A stretch of 64,000 nucleotides of DNA from an uncultured bacterium (GTDB lineage: Bacteria; Muiribacteriota; Ozemobacteria; Ozemobacterales; Ozemobacteraceae), in assembly GCA_964474705.1 (NCBI GenBank), contig CAYYUI010000007.1:15061-79060 (forward strand). The letters are read 5' to 3'. Positions within the stretch are counted from its first letter, which is position 1, and each line of letters begins with the position of its first letter. The notes below the pieces were generated by a model that made no database searches, had not been told where the DNA came from, and worked only from the letters and a program-made list of their open reading frames with translations. Shown one piece after another: positions 13,537 through 62,000 of the stretch. The position numbers and the translations under genes are program-made.

Positions 13537-13566
13537 ATAATCTGTAACAGGGGGAAAAATGCGCCG

Positions 13567-13806: not shown

Positions 13807-13888
13807 GTTGTGTGCCTCCTTTGAACTTCTTATGTGTTCCTGAGGAACTATCGACATGATTCCATAGCTCAATTAACATTTTTTTCGT

Positions 13889-40525: not shown

Positions 40526-40630
40526 GAACCCGCTGTTAAAATTGAACTTCAGACAGGGAACAATCTTAATGGAAACAGTTCGCCGAAATGCCATGACATT
40601 AATTCTTGACTCTTTTCCGGGTCGATTGAT

Positions 40631-44618: not shown

Positions 44619-45290
44619 TTGTCGGATGAAAGAATGAGTACAAAATTACAGAAAGAACGCCTTGAACGGATGCTCAATGCTGCATTGGCCGAATTTTCCG
44701 AACATGGTTTCGAACAGGCCAATGTTAACGCAATAGCTGCACGGGCTGAAGTTAGCAAAGCAACTATTTACAGTCACTTTAATACCAAAGAAAATCTTTT
44801 CCTGGAAGTGTTCGATCACTTTCTCGATGTGAAAATGATTTCAGGGCCGTGTGAATGGAAAGCCGCCACATTTGAAAATGAGCTGAAAAAAGAGACCAGG
44901 CGCTTTTTCAGCCAGGCTTCGGAAAGCCCAGAAGCCAGGTTCTTTTTTCGCTGTATGACTGCTGACGATGGCATTCTCTGTGATGAGTTGCGCAATGAAC
45001 TGTCAGGACGTTTCATTGCTGCCGCTTTTGGGAAAATGAATGATCTCTTTGAAGCGGGCCGGCAGGGACTATTTAACCAAAATCTGGATATCGAGTTCGT
45101 GAAACATGCGATGATCGGGGTCATACTTCAGTCGCTTCGCTACCACTGGGATTGTGAAAGAAAGGTTTCTCTGACAAAGATTGCTGATCAGGTGTCTGAA
45201 TTCATTCTTTTTGGTATGTCAGCAAAAAGAAAGTGTGCTGATGTAAAACATGCCCGTAAAGAAAAGATTTCCAGGGGGAACAATCTGTGA
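44619..45290 (+). CDS. TetR/AcrR family transcriptional regulator (likely repressor of the downstream RND efflux operon).
   Basis: HTH NVNAIAARAEVSKATIYSHFNTKENLF. Located upstream of the tolC-MFP-RND genes. Confidence 0.85.
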   Translation: MSDERMSTKLQKERLERMLNAALAEFSEHGFEQANVNAIAARAEVSKATIYSHFNTKENLFLEVFDHFLDVKMISGPCEWKAATFENELKKETRRFFSQASESPEARFFFRCMTADDGILCDELRNELSGRFIAAAFGKMNDLFEAGRQGLFNQNLDIEFVKHAMIGVILQSLRYHWDCERKVSLTKIADQVSEFILFGMSAKRKCADVKHARKEKISRGNNL

Positions 45291-46639
45291 ATTTTCTCAA
45301 TAAAAGAGGTTCGGAAAGCAGATTTTATCTGACAGTCATTGTGTTCTGTCTGTTGCCATTTACTCTAGTGGCTGATAGTAGCAGGGATGATGCCGCAGTT
45401 TCGAATTTTACCCTGCAGCAGTGCGTTGATGCAGCCCTTAAGACAAATCCTGCGGTTCTGGGGGCCGAAGACGCGGTAGAAATTTCGAGGCAGAAACTAA
45501 AATTTGCATCAAGCCAGAACCTGCCCAGGTTGAAAGCAGAAGAAACCTATACCGGCATGCGCCATATTCCGCAGATTGAGATGCCGGGTGCCGGGGCGAT
45601 CAGTATGGGGCAGGATGAATTTCAGGTCGATACCCTAAGATTTTCGCAACCGCTTTATACGGGTGGTGCGATCAGAAATAGCATCAAAGCTGCCAGATCG
45701 GCCGTGAATCTGCAGTCTCATCTTGCAAAAAGTCGGCGTGAAGACATTGCTCAAGCAGTAGCGGAAGCATGGTTTGGTTTTCTCGGTGCCCGGGCCATGG
45801 AAGAAGTTGCGTCGCAGGCTTTGCATAACCATCTTGGCCATGAAAAGAATGTCGAGAACATGATGGAAGCGGGGGTTGCAGTCAGAGACGATCTGCTGAA
45901 AGTTCAGGTGGCAATTCTCGAGCGGCGCGAAAATATCGTTATGGCTGCGAATGGCGTTGATCTCGCTCTTTCGCGTCTGGAAATGCTTTCCGGGTTGCAG
46001 CTGGAACCTGCGATGCTTTCAGAGTCCGATACAATAATTCCGCAGATTAATGAAGAAGAAGCTCAGACAATCGCTTCCCGTAGTCACCCGCTACTTTCTT
46101 CATTTAAAGAAGCGGTAAAGATTCATGCCTCTTCAGAAAAAGCCGCCAAAGGGGAACTTCTTCCCTCTGTTGCCGTGCAATGGAACTGGAATTCAGGCAC
46201 ACAGAGCAATGACGCTCAGGATAACTGGGATGCAACGCTTTATGTCGGCCTCAATCTGTTTGACGGGGGGCAGACGCGCAGCAAAATACGCGAGGCAGGT
46301 GCAGCCCGCAGTAAAGCCTCCCATGATCTTGAAGACATGCAGCGCAATATAAGTCTGGCCATTCATCAGGCGGCTCTGCGAATTGAAGAAGCCGAAGCCA
46401 GGCTTGCTCTTTCAGGTCAGGCCGAAAAGCAGGCGGCTGAGTCGCTGCGCCTGACCGAGGAACGCTTCAAGGCTGGAGCAGTAACTTCTCAGCATCTTCT
46501 CGATGCCGAGTCAGCTCTGGTTTCTGCGCGTCAGAGGAGAGTTTCGGCAAATTTGGATCGTGAACTTGCCCGCGTGGCATTACTGCATGCCTGCGGCAAC
46601 CTTGAACAGGCAATAGTAACAGCAAAGGAAGACAAATGA
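45287..46639 (+). CDS. TolC-family outer membrane efflux protein.
   Basis: Signal peptide plus two OEP repeats with coiled-coil alpha-barrel segments. 450 aa, with overlapping start/stop codons in an operon. Confidence 0.8.
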   Translation: MNFLNKRGSESRFYLTVIVFCLLPFTLVADSSRDDAAVSNFTLQQCVDAALKTNPAVLGAEDAVEISRQKLKFASSQNLPRLKAEETYTGMRHIPQIEMPGAGAISMGQDEFQVDTLRFSQPLYTGGAIRNSIKAARSAVNLQSHLAKSRREDIAQAVAEAWFGFLGARAMEEVASQALHNHLGHEKNVENMMEAGVAVRDDLLKVQVAILERRENIVMAANGVDLALSRLEMLSGLQLEPAMLSESDTIIPQINEEEAQTIASRSHPLLSSFKEAVKIHASSEKAAKGELLPSVAVQWNWNSGTQSNDAQDNWDATLYVGLNLFDGGQTRSKIREAGAARSKASHDLEDMQRNISLAIHQAALRIEEAEARLALSGQAEKQAAESLRLTEERFKAGAVTSQHLLDAESALVSARQRRVSANLDRELARVALLHACGNLEQAIVTAKEDK

Positions 46640-47949
46640 TCGCCTTTACCGCCAGAGAAAAAAGTATTTCATCATCCGTTCAATTTCAGCCTCACTTTGC
46701 ATCCGGAAAATCTGAAAAAATGAGGCTTAAGCCTGTTCTGGCAGTTATTCAGAGCTTTCTGCTGCTCTGCGTTTTTTCAATCACGGGATCGATTCTTTCT
46801 GCAGCCGGCAACGACCCGGTTCCGGTAACTCTCATCGCCCCGATTCAAGGCACTACCGAATGGATCGAAAAAACTACCGGACAGCTGGTGGCACCGAGGC
46901 GCGCGATTCTGAAAATCAGAAACAGCGGTTATGTCGGCAAGGTTATGGTTAGAGAGGGTGACCGGGTTAAAAAGGGCCAGCCCCTTGCCGTTCTTGATCT
47001 TGAAGATGCTGAGATCAATCTTCAGAGTGCCTGCATGAGTGCAAAGTCTGCAGAAACTCAGATAGAAGCAGCCAAAGCCGCGCTTGAAACCGCTAATGTC
47101 GCCCGGCAGCAGGCATCGATACGCCTCGAAACCACGACTCTTGATTTCGAGAGAGCGAAAGCACTGCGGGCAAAAGACACTATTCCGCAACAGCAGCTCG
47201 ATCACATGGAAGGCGAATATAAACTTGCCATGAATGCGATCCAGGTCGCCGACAGCCAGATCAAGCAGGCAAGAGCGGCTCAGACGGCCGCAGAATCTAT
47301 GCATGCACTGGCCAGGGTCGGGGTTCGCAACGCTGAAAAGCGTCTCAAAGATTCTTCTCTGTTTGCACCTTTTGACGGGCTGATTGTGGCGAAAACCCTT
47401 ATGGAGGAAGAACACAGCGAGGGTCAGTCGATATCGATCGTCGATGATTCGGTTCTTGAATTGAAGGCGCGTCTGCCTGAACGTATTCTGCCATTCATCC
47501 GCCTCGGTGCCAGAGTGATGCTTCATTCGCCGTTACTGTCGAAACCCGTTGAATCAGGTGTAAACACTGTCATTCCCGCGATAGATCCACAGACCCTCAC
47601 ATTTGAAATTATTACTTTGGTTTCTAACGATGAGCATAAGCTCAGTCACGGCGGTTATGCCGATGTTGATGTCGTTATCCGCGAAGAAAAGGGCTATCCG
47701 GTAGTCCCAAACAGTATAGTCCAGATTGCCAGCACAACCGATGCGCTGCCGGGCGAGCCTCGTTCCGCCTGGGTTTATACCGTCAATGATGGAAAAGCCT
47801 GTCGGACTCCTGTTACAGTCGGTCTGACAAGGAATAGTATGGTTTCGATTCTTGCAGGTCTTGCCTCGGGTACTATGATTGTCGACAAGGGCTTCAATCT
47901 TCTGTCTGACGGTGTTCAGGTCAGAGTCGACAGTGAGGCAAATCAATGA
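46636..47949 (+). CDS. RND efflux periplasmic adaptor (HlyD/AcrA-family membrane fusion protein). Start possibly at MRLKPVLAVIQ, about 46720.
   Basis: Order is lipoyl/biotinyl hairpin, then coiled coil, then beta-barrel. Lies between the OMP gene and the RND pump gene. Confidence 0.8.
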   Translation: MIAFTAREKSISSSVQFQPHFASGKSEKMRLKPVLAVIQSFLLLCVFSITGSILSAAGNDPVPVTLIAPIQGTTEWIEKTTGQLVAPRRAILKIRNSGYVGKVMVREGDRVKKGQPLAVLDLEDAEINLQSACMSAKSAETQIEAAKAALETANVARQQASIRLETTTLDFERAKALRAKDTIPQQQLDHMEGEYKLAMNAIQVADSQIKQARAAQTAAESMHALARVGVRNAEKRLKDSSLFAPFDGLIVAKTLMEEEHSEGQSISIVDDSVLELKARLPERILPFIRLGARVMLHSPLLSKPVESGVNTVIPAIDPQTLTFEIITLVSNDEHKLSHGGYADVDVVIREEKGYPVVPNSIVQIASTTDALPGEPRSAWVYTVNDGKACRTPVTVGLTRNSMVSILAGLASGTMIVDKGFNLLSDGVQVRVDSEANQ

Positions 47950-50900
47950 TTCTTGCCGATTCATCGATCAGGAGACCAGTAACCACGATCATGGCTTATC
48001 TGGCCATCGCTCTTTTCGGCATACTCTGTTACCTGGGGCTGGGGGTCGATGAATTTCCCGAAGTCGATATGCCAACCGTCACCGTAACCTGTGTTTATCG
48101 CGGGGCCAGCCCCGAAACCATGGAATCGAAAGTTGCCGATAAACTTGAAGAACAGCTGAATTCCATCAATGGCATAGAAAGCGTCAGGTCGGTCTGTTCA
48201 GAAAATATTGCCCGGGTTATTGCCGAGTTCAAGCTTGAGCGTAACATCGATGTCGCAGTTCAGGATGTTCGCGACAAGGTCGCCGGAATCAGAAGCATTC
48301 TGCCTGACGCAATGGATGATCCGGTAGTTGAAAAGTTCGATACCGGTGCCATCCCCATCATGACTCTGGCAATTTCTGGAAATCTGTCGGTGGCAGAGCT
48401 TTCCAGACACGTCAAGGATGTAGTCAAATCTCGTCTGCAAAGTATTCCGGGTGTTGGTTCGATCAGGGAACTCGGGGTTCGTGATCGCGAAATCAAGATA
48501 TGGATCGATAATAATCGATTGAACGCTCATCAACTGTCGGTGGCCGAAGTTGTCATGGCTGTTAAATCCAAGAACATCGAGATTCCTGCCGGCAAGATCG
48601 AGAACGACCGTAACGAGTTCGTGGTTAAAACCATGGGCGAACTGACCGACGTCGAAGCGTTCAGGCGTCTGACAATTGCAACCGTGAATCAGACTCCGAT
48701 TCATCTTGGCGAAATCGCCGACGTTGAAGACACTGTCGAAGATGAAACTTCGGTTGCCATGACCGACGGTAGGCCAATAGTCAGTCTTCAGGTTCAGAAA
48801 CAGTCAGGTGCAAATGCGGTCAAAGCGGCCCGGATGCTGAAAGAGGCTATTGCTGAGCTCAATCTCAATGCCCCACAGGGAGTAAAAATCCGGATTATCA
48901 TAGATACGACTCCATTTGCAGAAGAGTCGGTGCATTCAACGATGGTGGATATCGTAGTCGGCGGGGTACTGGCAGTTCTGGTAATTCTGTTTTTTCTGCG
49001 CAATGTCAGGTCTACCCTTATCTCGGCCCTGGCAATTCCATCATCGCTTCTGGCTGCCTTCATATTTATGCGGGTACTCGGTCTGACACTGAATACCATG
49101 ACTACCATGGCTCTGTCGTTGTCGGTAGGTCTGCTTATCGATGATGCGATTGTCGTTATCGAAAATATCTTCAGGCATCTGCGCCTGGGAAAACCACCGG
49201 CTCAGGCCGCCGGGGACGCTACCGAGGAAATCGGTCAGGCAGTTACTGCAACGACTTTTTCTCTGGTTGCCGTGTTTCTGCCGGTTGCTCTTATGAGCGG
49301 GATCGTGGGCCGTTTCCTCTATCATTTCGGCATTACGGTAACCGGAACGGTTCTGGTGTCACTGGTCGTCAGTTTTACACTTACCCCGATGCTGGCGGCG
49401 CGCTACCTTGAAAAGGAAGAGCACGAGAACGCGGTGGCAAGGTTTTTCGGCAGCATTCTCGATATGGTCGACGAGACTTATCGACGCATTCTTGCTTATG
49501 TTCTTGAACACCGCAATCTCATTCTGGTTTCCGGCGCTGCAATTCTGCTGCTGATCTGGGCATTGAGCGGCTTTATAGCATATGAATTCAAACCGCAGGT
49601 TGATAAAAGCCTGTTTCTGGTAAATTTCCGCACACCGGCAGGCACCTCTCTTGAGGGCTCCCGCAACATTGCCAGGGAGGCAGAAGGAAAAATTATCGCG
49701 CCGATAAAGGAATGGGTAACTTCTTCTTTGCTGACAGTCGCTGCTGACCCGCTTGAAGACCCGACCAAATGCACTATCACCCTTAATCTCAAACCGCGCA
49801 GCGAACGCCCTGGCCTGTCTCAACTGCAGCTTATGGATATGGTCAGAAAGACCTTGAGCGCAATTCCGGGTATTGAACGTGGCTCTGTTGAAGAGCATGA
49901 TCCGATGGCTGCCGGTATCGGGGCTGCCAACCAGCAGATGACTTATTCCCTGCTCGGGCCTGATTTTAAAGTTCTGGATGATTTGGCCGACCGCATAACG
50001 GCCTGGATGAAGCAGACTGGCGGTTTTGTCGATATAGTCGACACCCGCGAACCTGGCAAGCCTGAATTGCGGGTACGCCTGCTGCGCGAGCGTATGGATA
50101 CTCTTGGTGTCAATGTCGGGGCTCTGGCAACGACTCTGAATCTTCTGGTTGGCGGCCAGCAGGCAATTACACAGTTCAAAGCCGACGGGCGTCAATACGA
50201 CGTCAAAATGCGCCTGCAGAAAACTTTTCGTGAAAACACTGAGTATCTGCCAAATCTGATGGTGCGAACCAATGATGGCGGACGCACTGTGCCTCTCGCC
50301 AATCTTACCGAGTTTTCGGTCGAACCGGGTGCTGCCGCAATCAACCGTTTTAACCGGGCGCGCGAAATCCGGATTGGCTGTAATCTCGAGGGCAAAGTGC
50401 AGAGTTCCGCAAGTAGAGAATTTGAGGCTGAAATGAAGAAACTGCTGCCCCCGGGTTATCGAATCCAGCCGCAGGGATTGTCGAAAGTGCAGAAAGAAGC
50501 TGCGGAAGGTATGATTTTTGCCGCGCTCATAGCGGCTCTGCTGGTATACATGCTTCTGGCCTCACAGTTCGAAAACTACCTGCACCCTCTGACGATCATG
50601 ACTTCGGTGCCTCTGGGCGTAATCGGTGCTATCTTCGCTCTGATTATAACCCAGGCAAGAGTTGACGTCATGACCATGATTGGCTTTCTGATGCTGATGG
50701 GCCTGGTTGTTAAAAATGGTATTCTGCTCGTCGAGTTCATCAATCAGCAGCGCGAGCATGGCCTCAGTCGTCGCGAAGCGATTCTGGCCGCCGGTCCGAT
50801 CAGATTGCGGCCGATTATAATGACCAGCGCCTGCATGATCGGCGGAATGATTCCGCCGGCCATTTCGACCGGTCCGGGCTCCGAAATGCGTGTCGGCATG

Positions 50901-51032
50901 GCTATTGCCGTTATAGGAGGCCTGATCACCTCGACTCTGTTGACGCTGCTTTTTGTGCCGGTTATTTACGAGCTTCTCGAAGATATCTGCACTTATTTTG
51001 GTTTTCAGACATTTCGTGAAAAGCGGTCATGA
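47946..51032 (+). CDS. RND family efflux transporter permease (AcrB/HAE1-like).
   Basis: 1028 aa with 12 TM segments and two large periplasmic loops. Conserved TM4 Asp region (LLIDDAIVVIENI). Confidence 0.9.
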   Translation: MILADSSIRRPVTTIMAYLAIALFGILCYLGLGVDEFPEVDMPTVTVTCVYRGASPETMESKVADKLEEQLNSINGIESVRSVCSENIARVIAEFKLERNIDVAVQDVRDKVAGIRSILPDAMDDPVVEKFDTGAIPIMTLAISGNLSVAELSRHVKDVVKSRLQSIPGVGSIRELGVRDREIKIWIDNNRLNAHQLSVAEVVMAVKSKNIEIPAGKIENDRNEFVVKTMGELTDVEAFRRLTIATVNQTPIHLGEIADVEDTVEDETSVAMTDGRPIVSLQVQKQSGANAVKAARMLKEAIAELNLNAPQGVKIRIIIDTTPFAEESVHSTMVDIVVGGVLAVLVILFFLRNVRSTLISALAIPSSLLAAFIFMRVLGLTLNTMTTMALSLSVGLLIDDAIVVIENIFRHLRLGKPPAQAAGDATEEIGQAVTATTFSLVAVFLPVALMSGIVGRFLYHFGITVTGTVLVSLVVSFTLTPMLAARYLEKEEHENAVARFFGSILDMVDETYRRILAYVLEHRNLILVSGAAILLLIWALSGFIAYEFKPQVDKSLFLVNFRTPAGTSLEGSRNIAREAEGKIIAPIKEWVTSSLLTVAADPLEDPTKCTITLNLKPRSERPGLSQLQLMDMVRKTLSAIPGIERGSVEEHDPMAAGIGAANQQMTYSLLGPDFKVLDDLADRITAWMKQTGGFVDIVDTREPGKPELRVRLLRERMDTLGVNVGALATTLNLLVGGQQAITQFKADGRQYDVKMRLQKTFRENTEYLPNLMVRTNDGGRTVPLANLTEFSVEPGAAAINRFNRAREIRIGCNLEGKVQSSASREFEAEMKKLLPPGYRIQPQGLSKVQKEAAEGMIFAALIAALLVYMLLASQFENYLHPLTIMTSVPLGVIGAIFALIITQARVDVMTMIGFLMLMGLVVKNGILLVEFINQQREHGLSRREAILAAGPIRLRPIIMTSACMIGGMIPPAISTGPGSEMRVGMAIAVIGGLITSTLLTLLFVPVIYELLEDICTYFGFQTFREKRS

Positions 51033-51164
51033 GTATTGTATCTGGCTCCACATCTCCGCCAGTTCCCTGCAGATGCCTTTCGGAACCCTTTGTTTTGGCA
51101 GGGTATATTGACGTAAAGTAGAATTGCCGGTTATACTGACCTTGCAGACACTGTTAGTGAGATC

Positions 51165-52370
51165 GTGTTTGAAAGGGGAGTCTTGATGCCGCTCGTTCTG
51201 AACGACAAACGTGTTGTCGTGTTTCAGCCTGCGTCGAAAGATGATATCAGCGCGATCATCGACCTTTACATCAAGGTTTATAAAGGCAAATACACCCTCC
51301 CGGAAGTCGCAGACCCTGCTATTATTGCCAAAAAGGTAGAAGATCCTGCCTATTTCTGGACAGTTGCCAAAATAGAAGGCCGCCTCATCGGGTCAGTGAT
51401 TTTTGCCATCGACCCGGTCAACAAGATTGGCAAATCATACGCTGCTTCAGTGCTTAATGAATTTCGCGGTCAGGACGTCATGCGCACCATGGTCAGGCAC
51501 GGTCTGCAGCTGCTCACAGAAAAGACCCGCACCTGCGACATCATTTATGCAACCACCAGAACAGTCAGTTTTGCTCCTCAGGTGGTTCTTGAACATCTTG
51601 GTTTCATGTCTACCGGCATTTTTCCGAATGTGCGCAAAGTTGAATCCTTCGAGACACATGGGCTCGAGGTTTTTATGGGGCCTAAATGCCTTGAATACCG
51701 CCGCAAATGCCCGAAGCTGATTCCGGAAATGCTTGATTTCTATAATATCATCAGAGGCGATCTGAATCTTGAAGAGCCTGAGACTGTGGTTCTAGAGAGT
51801 GAAGACCCTCGCAGGATGGGCCCGGCCATCACCTTTGACGTTTTGACTGATGAAGATGCCGTCATCGAAAGGTTTTATCGCTATCAGGACAAAGACCTCA
51901 TGAAGAAGGTTTTCTTTCCTTTTACCGACCCTAATATGCTGTTTTCAGCCAAAGATGGCACTTCTGACATTTTCGTCAATTTCAATCCACTCGATGGCAA
52001 CGGAGTTATGGTCGGCTATCGGCATGCCGGTAAAGACCTGCGCAATACTCTGATGTGGTTCTGCGAAGAGGCTGCCAAATCAGGGATGCGTTATATTGAA
52101 ATGCTGGTGAGTGCTTTTTTGCCAAAGAAACAGCGGCTGGCTCTCGATGCAAAATTTCTTCCCTGCGCCTATTTCCCGGCCATGAAGATGTGCGATGACG
52201 GGCTGCGTGAAGACTTTCTCGTATTTTCCAGGTCGTTTGAAAGCCTCGATTTTATGGATATGCACCTGGTCGACAATAACAGGCGTTTTCTCGATGCGTT
52301 CATGAAATGCTGGTATGACCTTCTGGTCAGATGCCAGCCTGATTTTGACGAGGAGTGGAGAATTGGCTGA
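51165..52370 (+). CDS. Hypothetical protein, possibly a tandem GNAT-like acyltransferase fold (uncertain). First gene of the LuxE/LuxC-like cassette.
   Basis: N-terminal half shows a GNAT-like pattern (beta strand VVFQPAS, GRLIGSVIFAID, FRGQDVMRTMVRHGL...LEHLGF). The C-terminal half is a second, degenerate repeat. No confident family assignment. Confidence 0.55.
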   Translation: MFERGVLMPLVLNDKRVVVFQPASKDDISAIIDLYIKVYKGKYTLPEVADPAIIAKKVEDPAYFWTVAKIEGRLIGSVIFAIDPVNKIGKSYAASVLNEFRGQDVMRTMVRHGLQLLTEKTRTCDIIYATTRTVSFAPQVVLEHLGFMSTGIFPNVRKVESFETHGLEVFMGPKCLEYRRKCPKLIPEMLDFYNIIRGDLNLEEPETVVLESEDPRRMGPAITFDVLTDEDAVIERFYRYQDKDLMKKVFFPFTDPNMLFSAKDGTSDIFVNFNPLDGNGVMVGYRHAGKDLRNTLMWFCEEAAKSGMRYIEMLVSAFLPKKQRLALDAKFLPCAYFPAMKMCDDGLREDFLVFSRSFESLDFMDMHLVDNNRRFLDAFMKCWYDLLVRCQPDFDEEWRIG

Positions 52371-53490
52371 AGCAAAACCATTTGCCGCGTGTGGCGAACT
52401 TTTTGACGTTTCTGACGCTTTCGATCACAACCCTTATACCGGCCAGCTTTTTGACCGGGCCATGAACGAGGCACTGCGCTGGCATGCAGCCCGGTGCCCT
52501 GAATTCCGGGCATTTCTTTCCTGTGCCGGTCTGGGTGATTTCGACCAGGACTGCGCCCCTGAACAGATACCACCTCTACTGGTCACCATCTTCAAAGAAT
52601 TCAGGCTGATATCAGTGCCTGAAAAACAGGTCAAGATCGAATTGACCTCGTCCGGTACCGGTGGCCGCAAAAGCGCTATTGTGCTTGACCACCGCTCTTA
52701 TCGCCGTATTCTGAAGATCGTAAACAGTATTTTTGCTTCTCTGGGCATGGTCGATCACTCGCAAAAGGTTAATTATCTCTGTTTTACTTACGATCCGAAA
52801 GTTGCCGGAAATGTCGGCACCGCATTTTCAGATAAAATGCTCACTGGCCTGACTGCCAGACGCTCAGTCTTTTATGCCATCCGCTGGAACCATAACGCCA
52901 ATGATTTTGAATTCGATCTAGAAGCTACGGTTAAAAAGCTGATCGAGTTCAGTCGCCGTCCCGAACCAGTTAGAATTCTGGGGTTTCCAGCCTACCTCTG
53001 GCAGGTATGCAATCGCCTTGATGAGAAGGGCATGCGTCTGAATCTCGGTAAAAATTCATATATCATTACCGGTGGCGGCTGGAAGATGCACAAAGACCTC
53101 GAGGTGACCAAAGATATATTCAAGGATCGCATTGAGAAAGTTCTTGGCATGCCACGTCAGAATCTGCGTGACCTGTTTGGCATGGTTGAACACGGGATTC
53201 CCTACGTAGACTGCGAAGCCGGGCGGCTGCATGTCCCGGTGTTTGCCCGCGCGCTGGCGGTCGACCCCGAGACTCTGCAACCGGTCAAAGATGGCGAAGA
53301 AGGCCTGCTCTATCTCATGACCCCATATCTTTCCAGCTACCCTTCGATAGCCTTGCTGACTACCGACAAAGCGATCATCGAGGGCGACTGCCCCTGTGGC
53401 CGCCCCGGAAAAACCTTTCGCATAAGCGGCAGAGCCGGACTGGCCAAGCACAAGGGCTGCGCCATCACCGCGCTCGATCTGCTTAAATAA
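52315..53490 (+). CDS. LuxE-family acyl-protein synthetase (long-chain fatty acid-luciferin-component ligase homolog). An alternative TTG start at 52363 has an AGGAG RBS and overlaps the upstream stop.
   Basis: Direct motif matches to Vibrio LuxE: TSSGTGG (vs TSSGTNG), YIITGGGWK (identical), HVPVFARALAVDPETLQPVKDG (vs [22 protein letters not shown]), and C-terminal KHKGCAI (vs TQKGCAL). Confidence 0.85.
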   Translation: MTFWSDASLILTRSGELAEAKPFAACGELFDVSDAFDHNPYTGQLFDRAMNEALRWHAARCPEFRAFLSCAGLGDFDQDCAPEQIPPLLVTIFKEFRLISVPEKQVKIELTSSGTGGRKSAIVLDHRSYRRILKIVNSIFASLGMVDHSQKVNYLCFTYDPKVAGNVGTAFSDKMLTGLTARRSVFYAIRWNHNANDFEFDLEATVKKLIEFSRRPEPVRILGFPAYLWQVCNRLDEKGMRLNLGKNSYIITGGGWKMHKDLEVTKDIFKDRIEKVLGMPRQNLRDLFGMVEHGIPYVDCEAGRLHVPVFARALAVDPETLQPVKDGEEGLLYLMTPYLSSYPSIALLTTDKAIIEGDCPCGRPGKTFRISGRAGLAKHKGCAITALDLLK

Positions 53491-53493
53491 CGG

Positions 53494-56106
53494 ATGAACA
53501 ATATGAAAAAGCAAAAATGTATGGTTTTTGGCCGGCAGGTCGATGCGGAATGGCTGAACCAGGAAACCATCGGCGAAGTTCTTGCCGATGCGGCAGAAAA
53601 AGCTACCCTGGCAGCCGAACCAGATATTGAATGTATAATCGCTATTCTTGACCAGGTCGGGAAATCCTGGGCTGATCCTGAATATCATCTGAGGAGGCAG
53701 GCAGCAAAGATTTTGCCGGGCCTGACCCTTTTCAGCCCGGCAATGATCGAAGAAGGGTTTGCGGTTGTCAGCGCCATCTGCAGCCGACAGAATCTGGAAA
53801 AAAGACTCCGGGGAGAGCTCGGCGATCCTGCGGTTCTCGATCGCGGTATCGCGATGCCGCACCATGGTTACAGACTTCGTGCCGTTCCGCGCGGAATTCT
53901 TCTGCATCTTACCGCCGGTAATGTCTTTGTGGGTGCTGTTGACAGTCTTGTTTCCGGCATCATCACCAAGAATGCCAACATTCTCAAAATGTCGCGTGTC
54001 GATCCGGTATTTCCGCTGCTTTTCATCGAAAGTATCAAGGAACATGATCCGGCCGGCATTATCTGGCCCAACCAGGCGGCATTACTCTGGAAAGGCGGCG
54101 ATGCAGCCGTCGAGAATACCCTCTTGCAGGCTCCGATTACCGTCGTTTTCTGGGGTGGTCATGATGCTCTTCTGTCTTTGAAAGGTCGTATCGGCGCATC
54201 TACCAGACTGATCGAGAACGGGCCGCGCTACTCTTTTGCGGTAGTCGATGGCCGGCGCATCAGAAAAGGGCCCGCAGCTTCGATGATCAGAGGTCTGGCA
54301 CTCGATCTCTGTCGCTGGGATCAGCAGGCCTGCTCATCGCCGCATGTGGTCTACGTAATTGACCATGATATCAAGACAACGCATCTGCTTGCCGAAGCGC
54401 TTTATGATGAGCTTGTTCAGCTGCGTGAAGAGCTTCCGACTGGAGAACTGAGCTTCGACGAAAAAGTCGAGATTCGCAAGGTTCGCGAACTGGCACGCAT
54501 GTCGCAGGCCCGTGGCGAAGGCCGACTGATCTGCCCGGAAGATTTCAGCTTCACGCTGGTGATCGAGCATGACAGCGCCTTTAAGGTATCCTGTCTCAAC
54601 CGGACGCTTTTTTTCAAACAGACCCGGGACCTCGATACGATGCTGGAACAGGTCAGGCCGCTGGCAGCGTATCTGCAGACCGCCGGAATATATTGTGACA
54701 ACGAAATGGCAACCATGCTCGAGAATGAACTTTTCGCCACCGGCGTGAAACGCATCACCGAAATCGGTGGAATGAGCGAAGGGCATGATGGGGCACCGCA
54801 TGAGGGCAGTTTTCTGCTGCGCGGACTGGTTGAATGGGTCGATGTCGAATATCTCGGCAACTCAGCCAGTCGTGTTGAACTGCTTCTCAAGCAGATTCAA
54901 GCCTCCCCCTACTATCGGAATGCTGTTGAAAAAGCCGGCGGATGCGGTTTTGAGTATTTCCATAAGTTGCCGCTACTTGACCGCGAAACTTTTTACCGAA
55001 ATTCGCCCCCTGAATCTGAAGCGATTCTTACCGGGCCGATGACCGACAGTTACGTTTATGCCTCCGGGGGCACCACGGGCAGTCCGAAGTTCACTTTTTA
55101 TTCCAACGACGAATATCGCTACGTGACTGATGTACTGACAGATATTTACCGGAATGCCGGCATCTGCAGCAGGGATCGGGTAGCCAACCTTTTTATCGCC
55201 GGCAATCTCTGGACAAGTTTCAATGTTGCCGGCCGTGCCCTCGAGAACCTCGGTTGCCTGAATCTGCCGGTTGGCGGGGCTTCCGATCTCGAAAATATTC
55301 TCAAGTATCTGCAGATTTTTTCGGTCAATGCGGTGGTCGGCCTGCCGTCGATCATCATCAACCTTGCTGAAGAAATCAGCAGACGTGGTCTTCCGATCAA
55401 AATCGAAAAGATTCTTTATGGCGGCGAACATCTGCGTCCGCAAACCTGTGACTTTCTTCGTGAGGCTGTCGGTGCACAGCTGATCCGTTCGGCCGGCTAT
55501 GCCTGTGTCGATACCGGCCCGATCGGCTGGCAGTGTCTGCATCTCGATGGTTCGATACATCATGTTCTCGAAGAATACTGTTATGCCGAGATTCTCGATA
55601 CGGTTAATCATCAGCCTGTCGGTGGCAACACCGCGGGCGAAATTGTTGCAACCAATCTGAACCGGATATTGATGCCGGTGGTTCGCTATCGAACCGGCGA
55701 TCTGGGGCGCTGGGTCGAGACTGGGGTCTGCACCTGCGGTTTCAGAGGTCGGTCTTTTGAACTGCTTGGCCGATGCGATGATCTGCTGGTAATCGGCGGA
55801 ATCAATCTTATGCCTGTTGACATCGCAGCCGGTCTTGCCGGTTTACCGGTCAGTCAGTCATTTCAGATTGCCGCTCAGACAGCTGAAGGTCGCGACAGGC
55901 TGTGCCTCAGGCTCGAGGCTGAAAAGCCGGTTCCAGACAGCAGAGTCGTCGAGGCTTTGCGCCGGGGTTCATACAAAATTGCCGAATCTCTCGCCGAAAA
56001 CTGGATGACTATTGTAATTGAGTGGCATAAACCGGGCGCTATCAAACGTAACCCCCGCACCGGCAAACTCAAACCCGTGGTCGACGAAAGATTCAGTTCA
56101 GATTGA
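53494..56106 (+). CDS. Fusion protein: an N-terminal LuxC-family acyl-CoA/acyl-protein reductase domain (about aa 1-460) and a C-terminal PaaK/coenzyme F390 synthetase-like adenylate-forming domain (about aa 470-870).
   Basis: The LuxC-like segment is LHLTAGNVFVGAVDSLVSGIITKNANILKMS, with a putative catalytic Cys at QQACSSPH. The C-terminal half carries ASGGTTGSPKFTF (AMP-binding P-loop, as in PaaK) and a PaaK-like C-terminal subdomain. Confidence 0.75.
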   Translation: MNNMKKQKCMVFGRQVDAEWLNQETIGEVLADAAEKATLAAEPDIECIIAILDQVGKSWADPEYHLRRQAAKILPGLTLFSPAMIEEGFAVVSAICSRQNLEKRLRGELGDPAVLDRGIAMPHHGYRLRAVPRGILLHLTAGNVFVGAVDSLVSGIITKNANILKMSRVDPVFPLLFIESIKEHDPAGIIWPNQAALLWKGGDAAVENTLLQAPITVVFWGGHDALLSLKGRIGASTRLIENGPRYSFAVVDGRRIRKGPAASMIRGLALDLCRWDQQACSSPHVVYVIDHDIKTTHLLAEALYDELVQLREELPTGELSFDEKVEIRKVRELARMSQARGEGRLICPEDFSFTLVIEHDSAFKVSCLNRTLFFKQTRDLDTMLEQVRPLAAYLQTAGIYCDNEMATMLENELFATGVKRITEIGGMSEGHDGAPHEGSFLLRGLVEWVDVEYLGNSASRVELLLKQIQASPYYRNAVEKAGGCGFEYFHKLPLLDRETFYRNSPPESEAILTGPMTDSYVYASGGTTGSPKFTFYSNDEYRYVTDVLTDIYRNAGICSRDRVANLFIAGNLWTSFNVAGRALENLGCLNLPVGGASDLENILKYLQIFSVNAVVGLPSIIINLAEEISRRGLPIKIEKILYGGEHLRPQTCDFLREAVGAQLIRSAGYACVDTGPIGWQCLHLDGSIHHVLEEYCYAEILDTVNHQPVGGNTAGEIVATNLNRILMPVVRYRTGDLGRWVETGVCTCGFRGRSFELLGRCDDLLVIGGINLMPVDIAAGLAGLPVSQSFQIAAQTAEGRDRLCLRLEAEKPVPDSRVVEALRRGSYKIAESLAENWMTIVIEWHKPGAIKRNPRTGKLKPVVDERFSSD

Positions 56107-56401
56107 ACTGCTGAAATTCGCTGCTTATATAATGACAGTTTGCAGGGTGTGAAGAATTTGCCTTAGCAACGACTGCCGCGTTGATTTGCTCGCGAAGGCC
56201 AGAGATGGCCAGGTGTCGGTGAGTCGCCGGAGTGCGAACGAGCCGACCAGTGACAGTTTGTGACTGGTGTCATTGGCTCAGAGCGCTTTGATTGCTCATT
56301 CGCTCTGACGCTCGCGCATCCGTGCGCTTCGCGAGGAGTGAAACGACGAAGCAATCGCATGCTAAGGGCTGGGATTGTTTCGCTGTGCCCGCAACGGGAT
56401 G

Positions 56402-56701
56402 CTACATTCCGAATTTGGCACTCAACAGCAGTTTGGCGCCGCGGCTGAGTCTTTTTATCTGCATTTCGCGTTTTGAAGCAGTTGACCGGTCTGGCTGGCG
56501 CTCCTGATAACGCAAGATGACCGGCCCTCTGCCTCTGGTAAATCTGGCACCGGTGCCGTCATTGTGTGCGGCCAGCCGTTTCTCCAGATTGTTTGTTATT
56601 CCGGTGTACAGCCTGCCATCGCGGCATTCGACTATATAGACCGTCCAGGCTTCATCTTCGGCTGCATGGCTGATATCTGGGTTGTCAGGCCGGTTTGACA
56701 T
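56402..56701 (-). CDS. GIY-YIG nuclease-superfamily small protein (UPF0213/YhbQ-like). The start is uncertain among 56701, 56728 and 56758.
   Basis: WTVYIVECRDGRLYTGITNNLEKRLAAHN is the GIY-YIG core. About 100 aa. Confidence 0.7.
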   Translation of the reverse strand: MSNRPDNPDISHAAEDEAWTVYIVECRDGRLYTGITNNLEKRLAAHNDGTGARFTRGRGPVILRYQERQPDRSTASKREMQIKRLSRGAKLLLSAKFGM

Positions 56702-58277
56702 GGTAATAGACCAGCGGTTTTTCGACATTTTTGACCGGTGCCGATTCCGGGCCGGCAAACTGCCAGCGGCCTGATTCTAAAGCAACTTCTCTGATCTTTT
56801 CGGTGGCGAGAACCTGCCCTGCCTTGGCCAGCCCCTGCAGGCGGGCGGTGATATTCATGCCGGAGCTGAATGCCGTGAGATCGTCGTTTGGTCCTATCAG
56901 ACCTACTACAGCAGGGCAGAAGTTAGTGCCGATCGCAACTCCGAACTTTTCGAAATCAGGGTGCTTCTGAATGTCGTCATTCTCAGGCAGGCGCAGATAC
57001 TCGTTGGTGTAATCGATGATTATTTTAGCGCATTCAAGAACCTTCTGCACGATCGCTTTCGAATCTAGTTCGTAGAAAGGTGGGCCGAACAGCAGAATCA
57101 GGCAGTCGCCGACAATCTTGTCAAGACAGGCCCCGTGCGGAAAAACTCTGGTGACGATGCCATTCGACCATTTGTCGACGAAATTGGTGATTCGTTCAGG
57201 AGTTTTGAGAATCTGTTCGCTCATTTTGGTGAAACCTGAAATATCGGCGAAGATTATGCCAATCTGTTCGGCGCGGGGTGTCAGATAAACCTTTTCGTAG
57301 CCTGGCTCGGCGGTAAGTCTCGCAATAACCGGGTCAGGGAAAAATTTGCGCAGCATGTTACGTTCGCGGTTGAAGTCGACCAGTCGCTGGCGCAGGCTCT
57401 CGGCAAAAACCTGGACGATTTCGCGGGCGAAAATCGAGAAATTGCGGCCATCTTCAGGCACAAAGATGACCTTGCCGATCAGATTTTCTTCAATCAGGCC
57501 GTCAAGCAGATAAGTGATCGTCAGGTTTTCACAGCCGATTGCCTTTTTCAGCGCTTCACTGTCTGCAGACAGGCTATTGCCGTTTGCTTTGATAAAACTT
57601 TCAAGCCCAGGATGGACGTTTTCGCCGGAACCATAAACCCGCTGGTCATTCTCATATACCAGATAATTGATGTTCTCGACCCCGGTTAGTTCGTGATCTG
57701 AATAGAGAATTATCAGTTTGCTGAAGGGAACTTCCTTGCGCAGAACATACACGGCTCCGTCGATCGAGTCGACGATCGAATGGTTCTTGAGTGCAGACTG
57801 AATGCCCATGATCAGGCTGTGCTTCAGACTGCTGGTGTGAATTCCGAAAAAAAAGTTATCGAGCAGTTCACTGACTGTGTCGAGCATGGCAGTGCCAAGG
57901 TTTTTCTCGGGCGCTGTTTCGTGCGGAAAAGCAAGGGCGATTGCCCCGGTGATTTTACCGGCCATCTCGATCGGCTGAGCAAACCAGTGAATATTGTTGA
58001 AATTGAAGTTGATGGCCCGGGTTATCTGATGCAGCTGTGGGACGAGTCTCTTGATGTTGTTGTCGCAGCTGCCATAACAGAATACCTGATGGTTGAGGTT
58101 TTCGTCCTGGGTTTCGACAAACATTGCCGTGGTTTTGCAATGCTCCGCAAGAAACAGAAAGACCTTGCCCAGCGAACCATCAAGGTCATAATGTGCGGAC
58201 TCGAGCTCTTCTACTAACTTGTCAAGTTTCAGGTTCAAGTCACGCAGCTGCTGAAGTTCCTGAAAATTAAAATCCAT
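56685..58277 (-). CDS. Adenylate/guanylate cyclase (class III CHD) with N-terminal GAF-like sensor domain(s).
   Basis: C-terminal IGIIFADISGFTKMSE...KIVGDCLILLFG...GIAIGTNFCPAVVGLIG is CHD. The N-terminal ~330 aa have a GAF/PAS-like alpha/beta pattern. Confidence 0.8.
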   Translation of the reverse strand: MDFNFQELQQLRDLNLKLDKLVEELESAHYDLDGSLGKVFLFLAEHCKTTAMFVETQDENLNHQVFCYGSCDNNIKRLVPQLHQITRAINFNFNNIHWFAQPIEMAGKITGAIALAFPHETAPEKNLGTAMLDTVSELLDNFFFGIHTSSLKHSLIMGIQSALKNHSIVDSIDGAVYVLRKEVPFSKLIILYSDHELTGVENINYLVYENDQRVYGSGENVHPGLESFIKANGNSLSADSEALKKAIGCENLTITYLLDGLIEENLIGKVIFVPEDGRNFSIFAREIVQVFAESLRQRLVDFNRERNMLRKFFPDPVIARLTAEPGYEKVYLTPRAEQIGIIFADISGFTKMSEQILKTPERITNFVDKWSNGIVTRVFPHGACLDKIVGDCLILLFGPPFYELDSKAIVQKVLECAKIIIDYTNEYLRLPENDDIQKHPDFEKFGVAIGTNFCPAVVGLIGPNDDLTAFSSGMNITARLQGLAKAGQVLATEKIREVALESGRWQFAGPESAPVKNVEKPLVYYHVKPA

Positions 58278-58304
58278 GCTACACCTCGGTGTTGAGATTA
58301 GGGC

Positions 58305-58979
58305 TCATTCCTTGAGACTGAAGGACAGAACATGCCAGGTCACATAACCGGCAATGGCCAGCCAGACCAGACCAACCAGCCAGCCTGGCATGAACAGCAT
58401 TTCGCCAATTTTGGAAGCATCAGAGCAGGCTATCGATCGGTCGATCAGATCTTCTTTGATGTCGATAAGCACATAAAGACATGAGGTCAGGCCAAGAAAT
58501 TTCAGGAACTGGTCGCAGACTTTCTCGCTTGTATAAGCTGCGAGAGCCAGCAAACCCATCCCGGTCAACGAACAGATGATGATGCCTTCAAGATTTCTGA
58601 CCCAGATAGCAGTCACTGCCAGAAGCAGTATGCCTAACCCGGCGGTGATCTGTTGATCGAACCTGGTTTTGACTGCTCCAAGCAGAATCAGGCATCCCCA
58701 GAACAGACTGCCCAGATAGCCGGCACTGGTTACGATAAAACGTATACCCCCGGCTGTCCAGCAGACACCGCCGAGATTGGCGTTGATCTCTATTTTGACA
58801 ATTTCACCGCCGGTAAAAACGGCCGCCAGACCGTGCGACAGCTCGTGAAAGAATACAGTAAGATACTTGATCGGCAGCACCAGCATCGAGTCCCAGAAAA
58901 AGATGGCCAGCAGCACAGCCGCCATTGGCAGCATCATTCCTGCGGCATTTCCAGAAGGTTTCAGTTCCGTCTGTTCATT
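58305..58979 (-). CDS. Peptidase M50B-like membrane metalloprotease (HExxH inside a TM helix). Start probably MNEQTELK; the listed ORF extends to 59135 and overlaps the upstream gene end.
   Basis: FFHELSHGLAA is a zinc-binding motif of the M50B type (PF13398), in a polytopic membrane protein of about 6 TM segments. Confidence 0.7.
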   Translation of the reverse strand, partial: NEQTELKPSGNAAGMMLPMAAVLLAIFFWDSMLVLPIKYLTVFFHELSHGLAAVFTGGEIVKIEINANLGGVCWTAGGIRFIVTSAGYLGSLFWGCLILLGAVKTRFDQQITAGLGILLLAVTAIWVRNLEGIIICSLTGMGLLALAAYTSEKVCDQFLKFLGLTSCLYVLIDIKEDLIDRSIACSDASKIGEMLFMPGWLVGLVWLAIAGYVTWHVLSFSLKE

Positions 58980-59010
58980 CATCGAATCGATTTCCAAGCT
59001 GACTCCTTCT

Positions 59011-62000
59011 TCAGGCTGCAGTGGCCGGCTTAAAGGTGAAAAACCGGAACAGCAGATAAAGGGCAAGGGTTGCCGAGAACCCGAGCTGCACAAAATGATC
59101 GGCCTGATAAAGCTTGAGATAAACGGCAATCGCAAGAATCATTCCCTGCACGGCAGTTACCATGAACCATTTGTAATGGTTGGCTGAGGTGAACATCTTG
59201 ATCACGCCGACAGCAGCCAGAATACCGACCACAATCATGATGAACTGAAACAGGAAACCGCGCCCCTTTCTCGGGTTGATCAGCATGCCTTCGATGTAGG
59301 GCGCTTTGCCGGTCGGTTCGATCTGCAGCATCGAGAAAGATATCGGCCAGCTGGTCGTTGGAATCTTGAATTTGACAGGCAACAGACCGGTCTGGTCAAA
59401 AACCTTGTCGCTCTGTTTCTGCTGAGAAGCCATCTGCGACTGAGCAGGTGCTTTCTGCCGTTTCTGAATATTCGAGTAGGAGCTCAGCGAAGAGAAATAG
59501 GAACTGTTGTCGAGAAATCTGGTTTCGGCAATTTTCAGCAGCCGGTCGACGTTCCCTTTTTCACGCATCAGCTCGTAGCCTTCCGGCAGGTAGACGACCC
59601 AGCTCAATTCGCTGATCGGCAGATGGGCAGATGGCAACTCCATGTAAGTCTGGTTGAAAGCGCTCAATTCTTTTCCAAGCTTGATCGCATAGACTATTTC
59701 CACCGGGAAAGACTTGGATTCGCCGCCTTCCAGCGCTGATCTGACGATCGGCAGATTGTATACTCCCAGCTCGGCATTGAGCCCGGATCTTACCGACAGG
59801 CCGGCAACCTGAGTGCTCCAGAGTTCGGTAGTCGCCGCGCCAAACTGTGGCAGCTTGACTTTCAGGAATTGTTCCGAGTTGTTTCGTACTTCATAGACAA
59901 CCCTGGTCAGCAGGTAACCGTCTTCGTTGAGCAGGGTCATTGCTTCGGCGCGATCGATGACTGCTGTCTGCTGCTCGATGTCTTCAGGCCGAGCAACCGT
60001 TATAGTCAGATTATTCGGATGTTTGAGAAATTTGAAGGCGTAAGGAGTCTTTTCAGGCCGCTCACGGTTCCAGTCTTTGAGAAATTCAGCAGCGACAGTC
60101 GGTGTGTAGCCTTCCCGGTTGCCATTTTCCGATATCTCGAGGGCCTGAATACAGCCGATGCCAAGCAGGCCCCAGGATTGTTCTACATCGAGCGGAATTA
60201 TTTCCGGCACGTTGTAATTTCCATCCTTGAGGTTTTGAATGTCTTCTTCGAATTCGATCGTCAGCTGTGTGTTCCCACGGATTTTCGATTTGAATACCAC
60301 ATCGATGTGGCGGCTGTTACCGGCTTCAACCTGGCGCCAGTCCTCGATCAGCTTGTTTTCGACTTTCAGCACTCTTATTTTGTCGGGAATCTGGAAGGCG
60401 ATGCTGGCAATCCCGCTGCCGCCCATGATTTTGAGGTCGAAAATGTTGATGCCGGTGACGAAGCCCTCTTTGAAGTGGAGCAAATTCTGTTGTCGCACGG
60501 TTATTCTGGTCTTTTCTTCGATTATAACCGGTTCTTCCTCTGTTTCAGATGGTTGATCGGCAGATTTGACCTCCTCGGGCGGGGCACTTTCGACGTTGCG
60601 GTAAAGTTCGAAGTTGACAGTCTGAGTCGGGGGTAGAATGGCAAAAAATACGGTCTTTTCAGGAGTTTTTTCGCTGTTGCGCAGCACGCCCGGGTCGATC
60701 CAGGCTTCGCAATCTTTTTCGTTCACCGTAATCTGCAGAGTCGAAATGCAGACTGGAACCATGTTGAGGCTGAAACGGCTGGAATGCTTGTATTCGCTGG
60801 ATGCCATCGGAATAAAAAATTCAACGGTGACCATTGCCGGACCAGAAGCATTGGTCATGAAGCCGTAGGAGGTTTCACCCTGGTCTTCGATCAAGGTCAT
60901 GGCAAGAGGCTCGTCGTTAAGAGAAGCGGAAGAAGGAATGGCTTCGGTTGAAAGAAGACCGACTTTTTTCCAGCCCGAGTTGAAGAGGTTCAGCTTGAAT
61001 TCAGCATTGAATCTGACGCCGCGCTCTTCAATCGTGCCACGGTATTTGACCCCGTCAAAACTGAAGGCGGCCGGGGCGATTACTTCCTTGACCGGTGGAA
61101 TTTCGATGTCTTTGAGAAAGCGATAATCGGCTTCTGGAATGATTACGGCCCGATCACCCGAAGGCATTACCTTCGAGAGATCCTGGAACGGTGCCATGAC
61201 CCGGATTTCGCGGTAATCGGCGGCAAAAACCGGCATGCCGGCAAGAATGATGATGGTCATGATGAGCATGAGCAGTATTGCCGTCATACTGCGGCCGGAA
61301 GTTGGTGGAACATCGGTTTTGATTTCGACAACCGGAGTCTGGTTTTCGATTTTTACCTGACTCAGAAGCAGGATAGCTTTCCAGATCACTGCGCCGATCA
61401 TGGCCAGCCAGAACCCGGCATTGGCGGCATCGCCAACACTCTTCAGTTTCAGGTCGACAATTGACAGAAAAACGATGATCAGGGCGGCGAAGGTGATTTT
61501 GGACGGGATGCCCTGGAAAGCGCCGGCAACGAAATACAGGGCGCTAAAAAGGGCCAGGATGAAGGCAACGATTTCGGTGGTTCGGAGAATTGAAGCCCAG
61601 ACATAGCTCAACCTGACGCTCGGGCAGGTCGAATTGGGCAGCAGGGCTCCATCGGTTGCGACTTCAGCCATTACCAGATCACGTTCAAGGGTATAAAAAT
61701 TCTTGGTCATGACAAATTTGGATTTGATTGGCAGCATGCCACGGTTTTTGGCAGCTCCGAACCCCGCTTTGCCGCCTTTGCCAGGAGCTTCCTGCTGAAG
61801 GTCAGCCATCTGCTCGTTCATTGCCTGAGGTGCGGCCAGCATGCTTTTGCCGCTGACATCGGCACGCTTGTATTCAATGCTTTCATTTTCCATTCTGCGT
61901 GCAACGTTGACCTGATTGAGATCACCTTCAACCGGCCCATGCAGCTGGCAATAAATGACGCCTGTTTCTGCCAGATTGCCTGAAGACAGGTAGTGACATC

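Follow-up and report, generated by a model that had tools for sequence, protein, structure and literature searches.

Organization of the gene cassette

The 64,000-nucleotide (nt) stretch of contig CAYYUI010000007.1 analysed here (the window) carries on its plus strand three abutting open reading frames (ORFs) that, in the ORF listing of the window, fill positions 51165-56106. They encode, in this order, a protein with an N-terminal GNAT domain (gene 1), a LuxE-family synthetase (gene 2) and a LuxC-like reductase fused to a PaaK-like adenylate-forming domain (gene 3). The sequence is best read as a three-gene operon on a Riflebacteria (Rifleibacterium/Ozemobacteraceae-like) chromosome, which would be a minimal relative of the pathway encoded by the leupeptin (leup) cluster.

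The start of gene 1 was given as GTG 51165 in the ORF listing. ATG 51186 is the likelier start, because it is preceded by a Shine-Dalgarno sequence (GAAAGGGGAG) and gives a protein of 394 amino acids (aa), the length of nearly all homologues (394-396 aa). The gene (51186..52370, plus strand) encodes a LeupD-type GNAT N-terminal domain followed by a putative second GNAT-like domain at residues ~215-385. Gene 2 (52363..53490, plus strand), coding for a LuxE/LeupA-type acyl-protein synthetase, probably starts at the in-frame TTG 52363, which lies 7 nt past a GAGGAG and makes the gene overlap the stop codon of gene 1 (52368-52370); the protein then has 375 aa, or 391 aa if the alternative ATG 52315 is used. 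Gene 3 starts at ATG 53494, only 3 nt beyond the stop codon of gene 2. Its residues 1-455 (53494..54858, plus strand) form the LuxC/LeupB-N-type thioester reductase domain identified with Pfam, and its residues 456-870 (54859..56106, plus strand) the PaaK-like adenylate-forming (ligase) domain identified with NCBIfam PaaK models. The overlap at TTG 52363 and the 3-nt gap before gene 3 bear out the operon-like packing described in the first-pass annotation of this DNA.

Two overlapping sigma-70-like promoter matches (51095..51137, plus strand; TTGGCA-18-TAGAAT and TTGACG-18-TATACT, each 10/12 to the consensus) are located in the 153-nt gap between an upstream RND pump gene and ATG 51186. In the promoter and terminator scans, the numbers of matches were not above those in shuffled sequences, and only the position of these two promoter-like sites is suggestive. 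Judged from these consensus matches, the cassette probably has its own promoter. An Rfam scan of positions 50900-56800 revealed no riboswitch or other RNA.

LuxE- and LuxC-family proteins of the cassette

In the lux fatty acid reductase, studied by cryo-electron microscopy (7XC6), LuxE adenylates the carboxylate and passes the acyl group to its own C-terminal cysteine; LuxC accepts this group on a cysteine of its own and, with NADPH, converts it to the aldehyde (PMC9157457). The gene 2 product matched the Pfam LuxE family (PF04443) with an E-value of 8.6e-50, and all the motifs on which its initial assignment to LuxE had been based are present. Numbered from TTG 52363, the motifs of the protein include TSSGT-95, GGGWK-237 and KGC-364. 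In the alignment with Photobacterium phosphoreum LuxE (7XC6_E), GGGWK, the G-R of SGRAG and KGC are aligned with K238, R355 and C364. The acylation cysteine of KGC, which corresponds to that in the C-terminal TRxxKGCxLS of LuxE, is situated 10 residues from the C-terminus.

The N-terminal part of the gene 3 product (residues 41-448) matched the Pfam LuxC family (PF05893; E-value 4.6e-82), in agreement with the LuxC-like N-terminus and the ACSSP cysteine recognized earlier. Numbered from ATG 53494, its motifs are AGNV-141, ACSSP-279, SGGTTGSPK-524, RYRTGD-731, GRCDD-759 and TGKLK-856. The sequence DQQACSSP is aligned with DQQACFST of P. phosphoreum LuxC (PpLuxC; 7XC6_A), so that Cys280 corresponds to the catalytic Cys296 of PpLuxC; this cysteine is invariant in 13 diverse homologues. 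The alignment with 7XC6_A ends at chain residue 447 (458 in the numbering of the structural paper) and is followed in gene 3 by a linker and the PaaK-like domain, which replace the C-terminal oligomerization/cleft element (460-488) of LuxC. Furthermore, residues L107, W111, M114 and A121 of the distal hydrophobic cleft of PpLuxC are replaced by E, V, A and N. These differences may be taken as weak, alignment-dependent evidence against a long fatty substrate.

The C-terminal half of the gene 3 product (residues 469-866) matched the NCBIfam model NF041878 with an E-value of 4.6e-36 and a second PaaK model with an E-value of 1.6e-31, and its SGGTTGSPK motif had led to the same PaaK-like assignment before. 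The domain also matched the PaaK structure 4R1L (E-value 1.4e-29) and has the same fold and adenylation motifs as PaaK and the PaaK-like natural-product ligases (4R1L, 2Y4O, 6SIW, 6WUQ). Unlike PaaK, it is fused to a reductase, it scores below the equivalog cut-offs and no paa catabolic genes are present in the window.

The E-values of these family assignments are far beyond chance. The bit scores against the equivalog models were nevertheless much lower than the corresponding cut-offs: 143.8 versus 550 bits for LuxE (gene 2), 131.2 versus 750 bits for LuxC (gene 3), and 124 versus 700 and 109 versus 646 bits for the two PaaK models (gene 3). The lux and PaaK cut-offs were all missed widely; gene 2 and gene 3 encode members of these families rather than orthologues of the lux and PaaK proteins. 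An exact-sequence look-up of the gene 3 product returned no record.

To summarize the comparison with LuxC-LuxE(-LuxD), the cassette encodes proteins of the same Pfam families, with the Lys/Arg pair and the KGC acyl-cysteine of LuxE and the catalytic cysteine of LuxC retained. As the catalytic residues are conserved, the mechanism leading from a carboxylate through acyl-AMP and a thioester to an aldehyde is probably shared. Unlike the lux system, the cassette has a GNAT partner and neither luxAB nor luxD, its proteins show only ~28% identity to the lux proteins and score under the equivalog thresholds, and the C-terminal oligomerization/cleft element of LuxC is exchanged for a PaaK-like domain. 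The absence of luxAB and LuxD had been noticed from the sequence alone; indeed, our Pfam scan of nearly all window ORFs of at least 150 aa detected no luciferase-like or LuxD-like protein.

The GNAT module

The GNAT partner proposed earlier for the LuxE/LuxC pair was recovered with Pfam: residues 37-127 of the gene 1 product matched PF00583 with an E-value of 7.6e-6. The remaining ~250 aa had no match. The AlphaFold2 model of the protein, built from an alignment of 41 sequences (predicted local distance difference test score 89.7, predicted template modelling score 0.87), consists of two successive alpha/beta domains, and the second of these looks GNAT-like in the model. A comparison of the two halves with hhalign detected no sequence repeat (probability 0.2%), so the second GNAT-like domain is a feature of the structure model. 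Of the tandem-GNAT architecture that had been suggested, the N-terminal GNAT is therefore found by Pfam and the two domains appear in the model, with the identity of the second one coming from the model only.

The canonical GNAT motif for binding of coenzyme A (CoA) is Q/R-x-x-G-x-G/A. The gene 1 family differs from it: in the beta4-alpha3 region the motif reads R/Q-G-x-D/N-x-M in the cassettes of the window type (type A, see below; residues 94-99 of the window protein) and R-G-x-N/G-L-F/M in the related type B cassettes. Elsewhere, the family has invariant residues at Y28/Y32/Y36, R125, T126, N148, E156, H158 and R172. This sequence pattern suggests that the module may bind its acyl donor in an unusual way.

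The gene 1 family is small, with 737 clusters (50% identity) at E<=1e-3 among 1.84 billion representatives. Some of its members carry an N-terminal fusion to a transporter of the major facilitator superfamily (MFS), namely P0306 (803 aa) and P0328 (799 aa); the gene of P0306 is found at positions 8001-10412 of contig L093, which ends there. The fusion of the module to an MFS transporter, together with the linkage of MFS genes in related cassettes, points to a secreted small molecule.

Comparison with the leupeptin cluster

The leup cluster consists of leupABCD and an MFS gene and is present in Klebsiella michiganensis/oxytoca, Photorhabdus and Xenorhabdus (MIBiG entry cited in PMC10548850). 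The aldehydes derived from it give pyrazinone autoinducers in Klebsiella. Descriptions of this ligase/LuxCE route to peptide aldehydes come from only a few Gamma- and Betaproteobacteria, and its distribution is considered narrow. Its product leupeptin is acetyl-Leu-Leu-argininal. A 2020 abstract by Li and colleagues is said to describe the pathway as built by 'discretely expressed ligases'.

With the leupA primer and the leupABCD coordinates from Cosic et al., we located the leup locus by a primer search of a metagenome collection, which yielded eight contigs. One of them, L087, carries genes for an MFS protein, a 378-aa LuxE-family protein, an 801-aa protein, a 446-aa PaaK-like protein and a 305-aa GNAT protein. 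An exact protein look-up identified the 801-aa and 305-aa proteins as the 'acyl-CoA reductase' and the 'GNAT family N-acetyltransferase' of K. michiganensis. LeupB (801 aa) contains the Pfam LuxC and AMP-binding domains in one polypeptide. The parts of the leup system are thus LeupA (LuxE-like), LeupB (LuxC-adenylating fusion), LeupC (PaaK-like ligase), LeupD (GNAT) and an MFS exporter.

Four catalytic modules recur in the leup cluster and the window cassette: the LuxE-like synthetase, the LuxC-like reductase and the PaaK-like domain, the latter two in one polypeptide, and a GNAT, for which the homology concerns the N-terminal domain. Both systems do without a non-ribosomal peptide synthetase (NRPS), an acyl carrier protein (ACP) and a luciferase. 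Gene 2 shares 35% identity with K. michiganensis LeupA over 354 aa (E-value 7e-72). In an all-against-all comparison, it scored 278-289 bits with the LuxE proteins of type B cassettes, 217 bits with LeupA and 140 bits with P. phosphoreum LuxE. Residues 77-866 of gene 3 are collinear with residues 55-800 of LeupB (27% identity, E-value 1e-66), including the PaaK-like domain, which is collinear with the LeupB C-terminus and 32% identical to LeupC. The best matches of LeupC among all fetched loci were, in turn, the fused PaaK domains of type A proteins. LeupD corresponds to the N-terminal domain of the gene 1 family (hhalign 95.7%, E-value 8.8e-9). The GNATs also differ: LeupD has 305 aa and keeps the canonical motif as R-N-R-G-V-A, whereas the window protein has 394 aa, a second GNAT-like domain according to the model and a non-canonical CoA motif. 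Moreover, the GNAT gene comes first in the window.

The cassette had been described in the first-pass annotation as an orphan. Its architecture is not an unexplained one, as the leup cluster accounts for the genes in kind, and the LuxC-PaaK fusion has a precedent in LeupB. The 'fatty' substrate considered for it is not supported either: gene 2 is nearer to LeupA than to the luminous LuxE (217 versus 140 bits), and the lux equivalog cut-offs are missed. We conclude that the cassette very probably belongs to this family of homologous cassettes.

The public names of LeupB-type fusions (P0403-P0520) are 'long-chain-fatty-acyl-CoA reductase', 'acyl-CoA reductase' and, once, 'preprotein translocase subunit Tim44'. 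Such names give no hint of the ligase domain in these fusions or of their connection with leupeptin.

Distribution of related cassettes

In a scan of one genome per GTDB species, at least 161 species had a relative of the LuxC-PaaK fusion. Gene neighbourhoods were surveyed with home-made profiles for the best 80 loci and four more. The leup clade proper, defined by at least 55% identity to LeupB, is made up of Gamma- and Betaproteobacteria: Klebsiella, Mixta, Erwinia, Yersinia, Morganella, Providencia, Pseudomonas, Chitinimonas, Burkholderia, Janthinobacterium and Chromobacterium. By sequence, the window clade appears as a separate and deeper branch. Gene 3 has its closest homologues (up to 99% identity) in metagenome-assembled genomes of Candidatus Riflebacteria, Rifleibacterium and Ozemobacteraceae.

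The type A cassettes (~40 species loci) contain exactly the triplet of the window, i.e. the GNAT-plus-second-domain protein, LuxE and LuxC-PaaK. Their hosts are mostly Riflebacteria, and further loci are labelled Xenobia, Armatimonadota, Chloroflexota, Wallbacteria, UBP16 and Elusimicrobia. In one locus labelled Armatimonadota (L039, 7069-11013), LuxE and LuxC-PaaK apparently form a single ORF of 1314 aa in our home-made ORF call.

The type B cassettes (~27 loci) encode a ~497-aa protein with HATPase_c_2 and GNAT-like parts, an MFS_3 exporter, two extra PaaK-like ligases, LuxE and LuxC-PaaK. Examples are L001 (3397-12697), L003 (2608-12766) and L047 from Rhodopseudomonas palustris JSC-3b (4645-14202). 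Besides this cultured strain, the hosts include Desulfofustis limnaeus, Ottowia, Geobacter, Bacteroidales, Acidobacteria and others. The extra ligases have 429 aa and 454 aa, which brings the adenylating units to four in total; the divergent 454-aa protein, considered as a possible gene 1 homologue, was ruled out as such and is a PaaK-like ligase (hhalign 99.2% to the PaaK domain). The actual counterpart of gene 1 is the GNAT protein, whose C-terminal 340 aa show homology to the gene 1 family along the entire length of the family (hhalign 96.7%, E-value 3e-10). The HATPase_c_2 domain is RsbW-like, and small HATPase_c_2, STAS and SpoIIE genes are often nearby, which suggests that type B is coupled to partner-switching signalling. 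No literature on this six-gene cassette was found.

The type B proteins are the closest sequence relatives of the window cassette outside Riflebacteria (258-289 bits). Both have LuxE, the LuxC-PaaK fusion and the GNAT-plus-second-domain module, and type B adds the HATPase_c_2 domain on the GNAT, the MFS_3 exporter and two further PaaK-like ligases. Because of the homology between the gene 1 family and the type B GNAT module, the conserved core everywhere is GNAT module, LuxE and LuxC-PaaK. None of the ~70 loci had LuxD, luxAB, an alcohol dehydrogenase, a wax synthase or any other enzyme that consumes aldehydes linked to it. We regard the window cassette as a new, minimal leup-type variant from a phylum without cultured members, within a far larger family that is uncharacterized.

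Genomic context

The rest of the window is ordinary chromosome with htpG, dapB, dut, nadE, fliFGHI, hslUV, DEAD-box helicase and xerC-like genes. Directly upstream of the cassette lies a TetR-OEP-MFP-RND (AcrB-type) efflux operon (44619-51032, plus strand). Apart from the window, only its relative L005 (89% identity) has this operon, which is positioned between a gene for an HI0933-like flavoprotein and the cassette; we therefore rejected it as a conserved exporter of the cassette. It looks like an insertion and may be a co-opted exporter or unrelated.

Convergent to the cassette, the minus strand (56402-63915) carries genes for a GIY-YIG protein, a cyclase-like protein of 530 aa, an M50B-like peptidase and a giant protein that has at least 1634 aa and matches no Pfam family. 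These genes are syntenic with the cassette in 12-19 Riflebacteria loci and absent from the non-Riflebacteria type A loci. The cyclase-like, M50B-like and giant-protein genes, considered as partners of the cassette, were on this ground judged to reflect lineage synteny.

Two further arrangements in the window were observed. Positions 16480-22419 are occupied by three tandem paralogous genes whose start and stop codons overlap (products of 671, 656 and 656 aa). Each product combines CarboxypepD_reg with a right-handed beta-helix, with fn3 in the first two, and is probably secreted or located at the cell surface. About 10 kb upstream of the cassette (39324-41941), an unrelated GNAT gene (288 aa, minus strand) adjoins a MatE efflux gene (436 aa). 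No link of this pair to the cassette was seen in other loci.

Proposed pathway and alternative explanations

Enzymes of the PaaK-like family activate carboxylates by adenylation for transfer to CoA or an amine, and GNATs transfer acyl groups from CoA to amines. The enzyme set of the cassette is best understood as a minimal version of the NRPS-independent leup route, in which separate ATP-dependent ligases work with a GNAT and with a reductase pair of the LuxE/LuxC type to make a small N-acylated peptide aldehyde. We infer its substrates, the order of its steps and its product from the observed homology, domain architecture, intact catalytic residues and linkage of the three genes. The GNAT module of gene 1 would N-acylate an amino acid, and the PaaK-like domain of gene 3 would then adenylate the N-acyl amino acid and couple it to a second amino acid; alternatively, this domain would supply the acyl-CoA for the GNAT. 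The LuxE-like enzyme would adenylate the terminal carboxylate and hold the thioester on the cysteine of its C-terminal KGC. Finally, the LuxC-like domain would load the acyl group onto Cys280 and reduce it with NAD(P)H to the free aldehyde. We put at about 60% the probability that the cassette yields an N-acylated amino or peptide aldehyde by this route. Of the two products originally suggested, the N-acylated small molecule pointed in the right direction, whereas the fatty aldehyde or alcohol is not supported.

The same logic can be applied to leup, where one GNAT, three adenylating units and one reductase would fit one N-acylation, two amide ligations and one ATP-dependent reduction. As the window has two adenylating units versus three in leup, the predicted product is one residue shorter than leupeptin. 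An N-acyl dipeptide aldehyde is the most economical prediction; should the PaaK domain do no more than provide the acyl-CoA donor, an N-acyl amino aldehyde would result instead. Either product would probably act as a protease inhibitor and/or as a pyrazinone precursor. The type B cassettes, with their four adenylating units, would make a longer product.

Several points weigh against a leup-like peptide aldehyde. The assignment of leup steps to enzymes used here is based on domain chemistry and is not a reported result. The Leup proteins are matched with only 26-35% identity, and gene 3 has a LuxC domain about as distant from LeupB as from luminous LuxC (101 versus ~110 bits); because of this low identity and equidistance, the chemical logic of leup can be transferred to the cassette, but its product cannot. 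Neither the window nor the ~10-kb flanks of the type A loci contain a stand-alone LeupC or the MFS exporter; for LeupC, no other PaaK-like ORF was found in the 64-kb window or in these flanks. Furthermore, the non-canonical motif and the extra domain of gene 1 suggest that acyl-CoA is not assured as its acyl donor.

If the PaaK-like domain made acyl-CoA, with the GNAT acylating a single amino acid and LuxE/LuxC reducing it, no peptide bond would be formed by a ligase, and the aldehyde, once cyclized or condensed, would serve mainly as a signal of the pyrazine type rather than inhibit proteases. CoA ligation is the classical activity of PaaK-family enzymes, the Leup-derived aldehydes of Klebsiella end up as pyrazinone autoinducers, and the fusion of the GNAT to an RsbW-like HATPase_c_2 domain in the six-gene relatives, with STAS and SpoIIE genes nearby, hints at signalling. 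However, LeupC and the C-terminal domain of LeupB are of the same PaaK-like family, and the 'discretely expressed ligases' reportedly building leupeptin favour amide ligation; the window cassette itself has no regulatory domain. We therefore regard a single-residue aldehyde as improbable, although it is the strongest competitor of the N-acyl peptide aldehyde. Slightly less probable again is a lux-type fatty acid reductase that converts a medium- or long-chain acid to the aldehyde or alcohol, with PaaK and GNAT making an N-acyl lipid or a wax-type product. The strong Pfam matches to LuxE and LuxC, the retained catalytic residues and the database label 'long-chain-fatty-acyl-CoA reductase' of the homologues speak for such a function, but the scores are well under the lux equivalog cut-offs (144 versus 550 and 131 versus 750 bits), none of the enzymes that would consume the aldehyde (or LuxD) is linked in the ~70 loci and the nearest characterized system of this exact architecture makes a peptide aldehyde. 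The replaced cleft residues (E, V, A, N) and 460-488 element of LuxC argue weakly in the same direction, depending on the alignment.

Our literature search for LuxE-like/LuxC-like systems returned only lux reporters, flagellin islands and TabE. Orphan luxC/luxE homologues are known from the flagellin glycosylation islands of Aeromonas and Enterobacteriaceae (PMC7874193, PMC4875605), where, as in the window, LuxC and LuxE family genes occur outside luminous bacteria. A role in surface glycan or protein modification, as proposed for these homologues, might also be considered here in view of fliF, fliG, fliH and fliI ~20 kb upstream in the window. The islands, however, contain ACP, FabG, AMP-ligase, pse and glycosyltransferase genes, and neither a LuxC-PaaK fusion nor a dedicated GNAT partner has been described there. 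Conversely, no ACP, FabG, pse or glycosyltransferase genes are found next to the cassette in the window or in related loci, and flagellar genes are not linked to the cassette in other loci, which makes such a role very unlikely.

A more far-reaching version of the aldehyde pathway deserves mention, even though we consider it rather doubtful. Type A and type B together might belong to a large superfamily of NRPS-independent aldehyde pathways that extends across phyla and has so far not been described, with leup as one derived proteobacterial branch. The conserved tandem-GNAT module, which has lost the canonical CoA pyrophosphate motif and occurs fused to RsbW-like kinases or to MFS exporters, may not be a simple acetyl-CoA transferase. 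Within such a superfamily, the module could take the acyl group from an enzyme-bound thioester or adenylate, or it could couple synthesis to export or to partner-switching signalling. If either were true, short acyl-peptide aldehydes or pyrazinones would make up a novel class of signals in anaerobes that have not been cultured.

Leupeptin and other peptide aldehydes inhibit proteases potently and give rise to pyrazinone signals. The enzymatic logic of the leup type is now seen in a three-gene form in Riflebacteria and in a six-gene form in Desulfobacterota, Bacteroidota, Acidobacteriota, Geobacter and Rhodopseudomonas palustris. For annotation, this means that 'long-chain-fatty-acyl-CoA reductase' is a misleading name for LuxC-PaaK fusion proteins. 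If the number of ligases sets the length of the peptide, these cassettes would be a compact and easily expressed source of new acyl-amino and peptide aldehydes, as well as a simple system in which to study the recruitment of reductases of the LuxE/LuxC type, be it from light production or to it.

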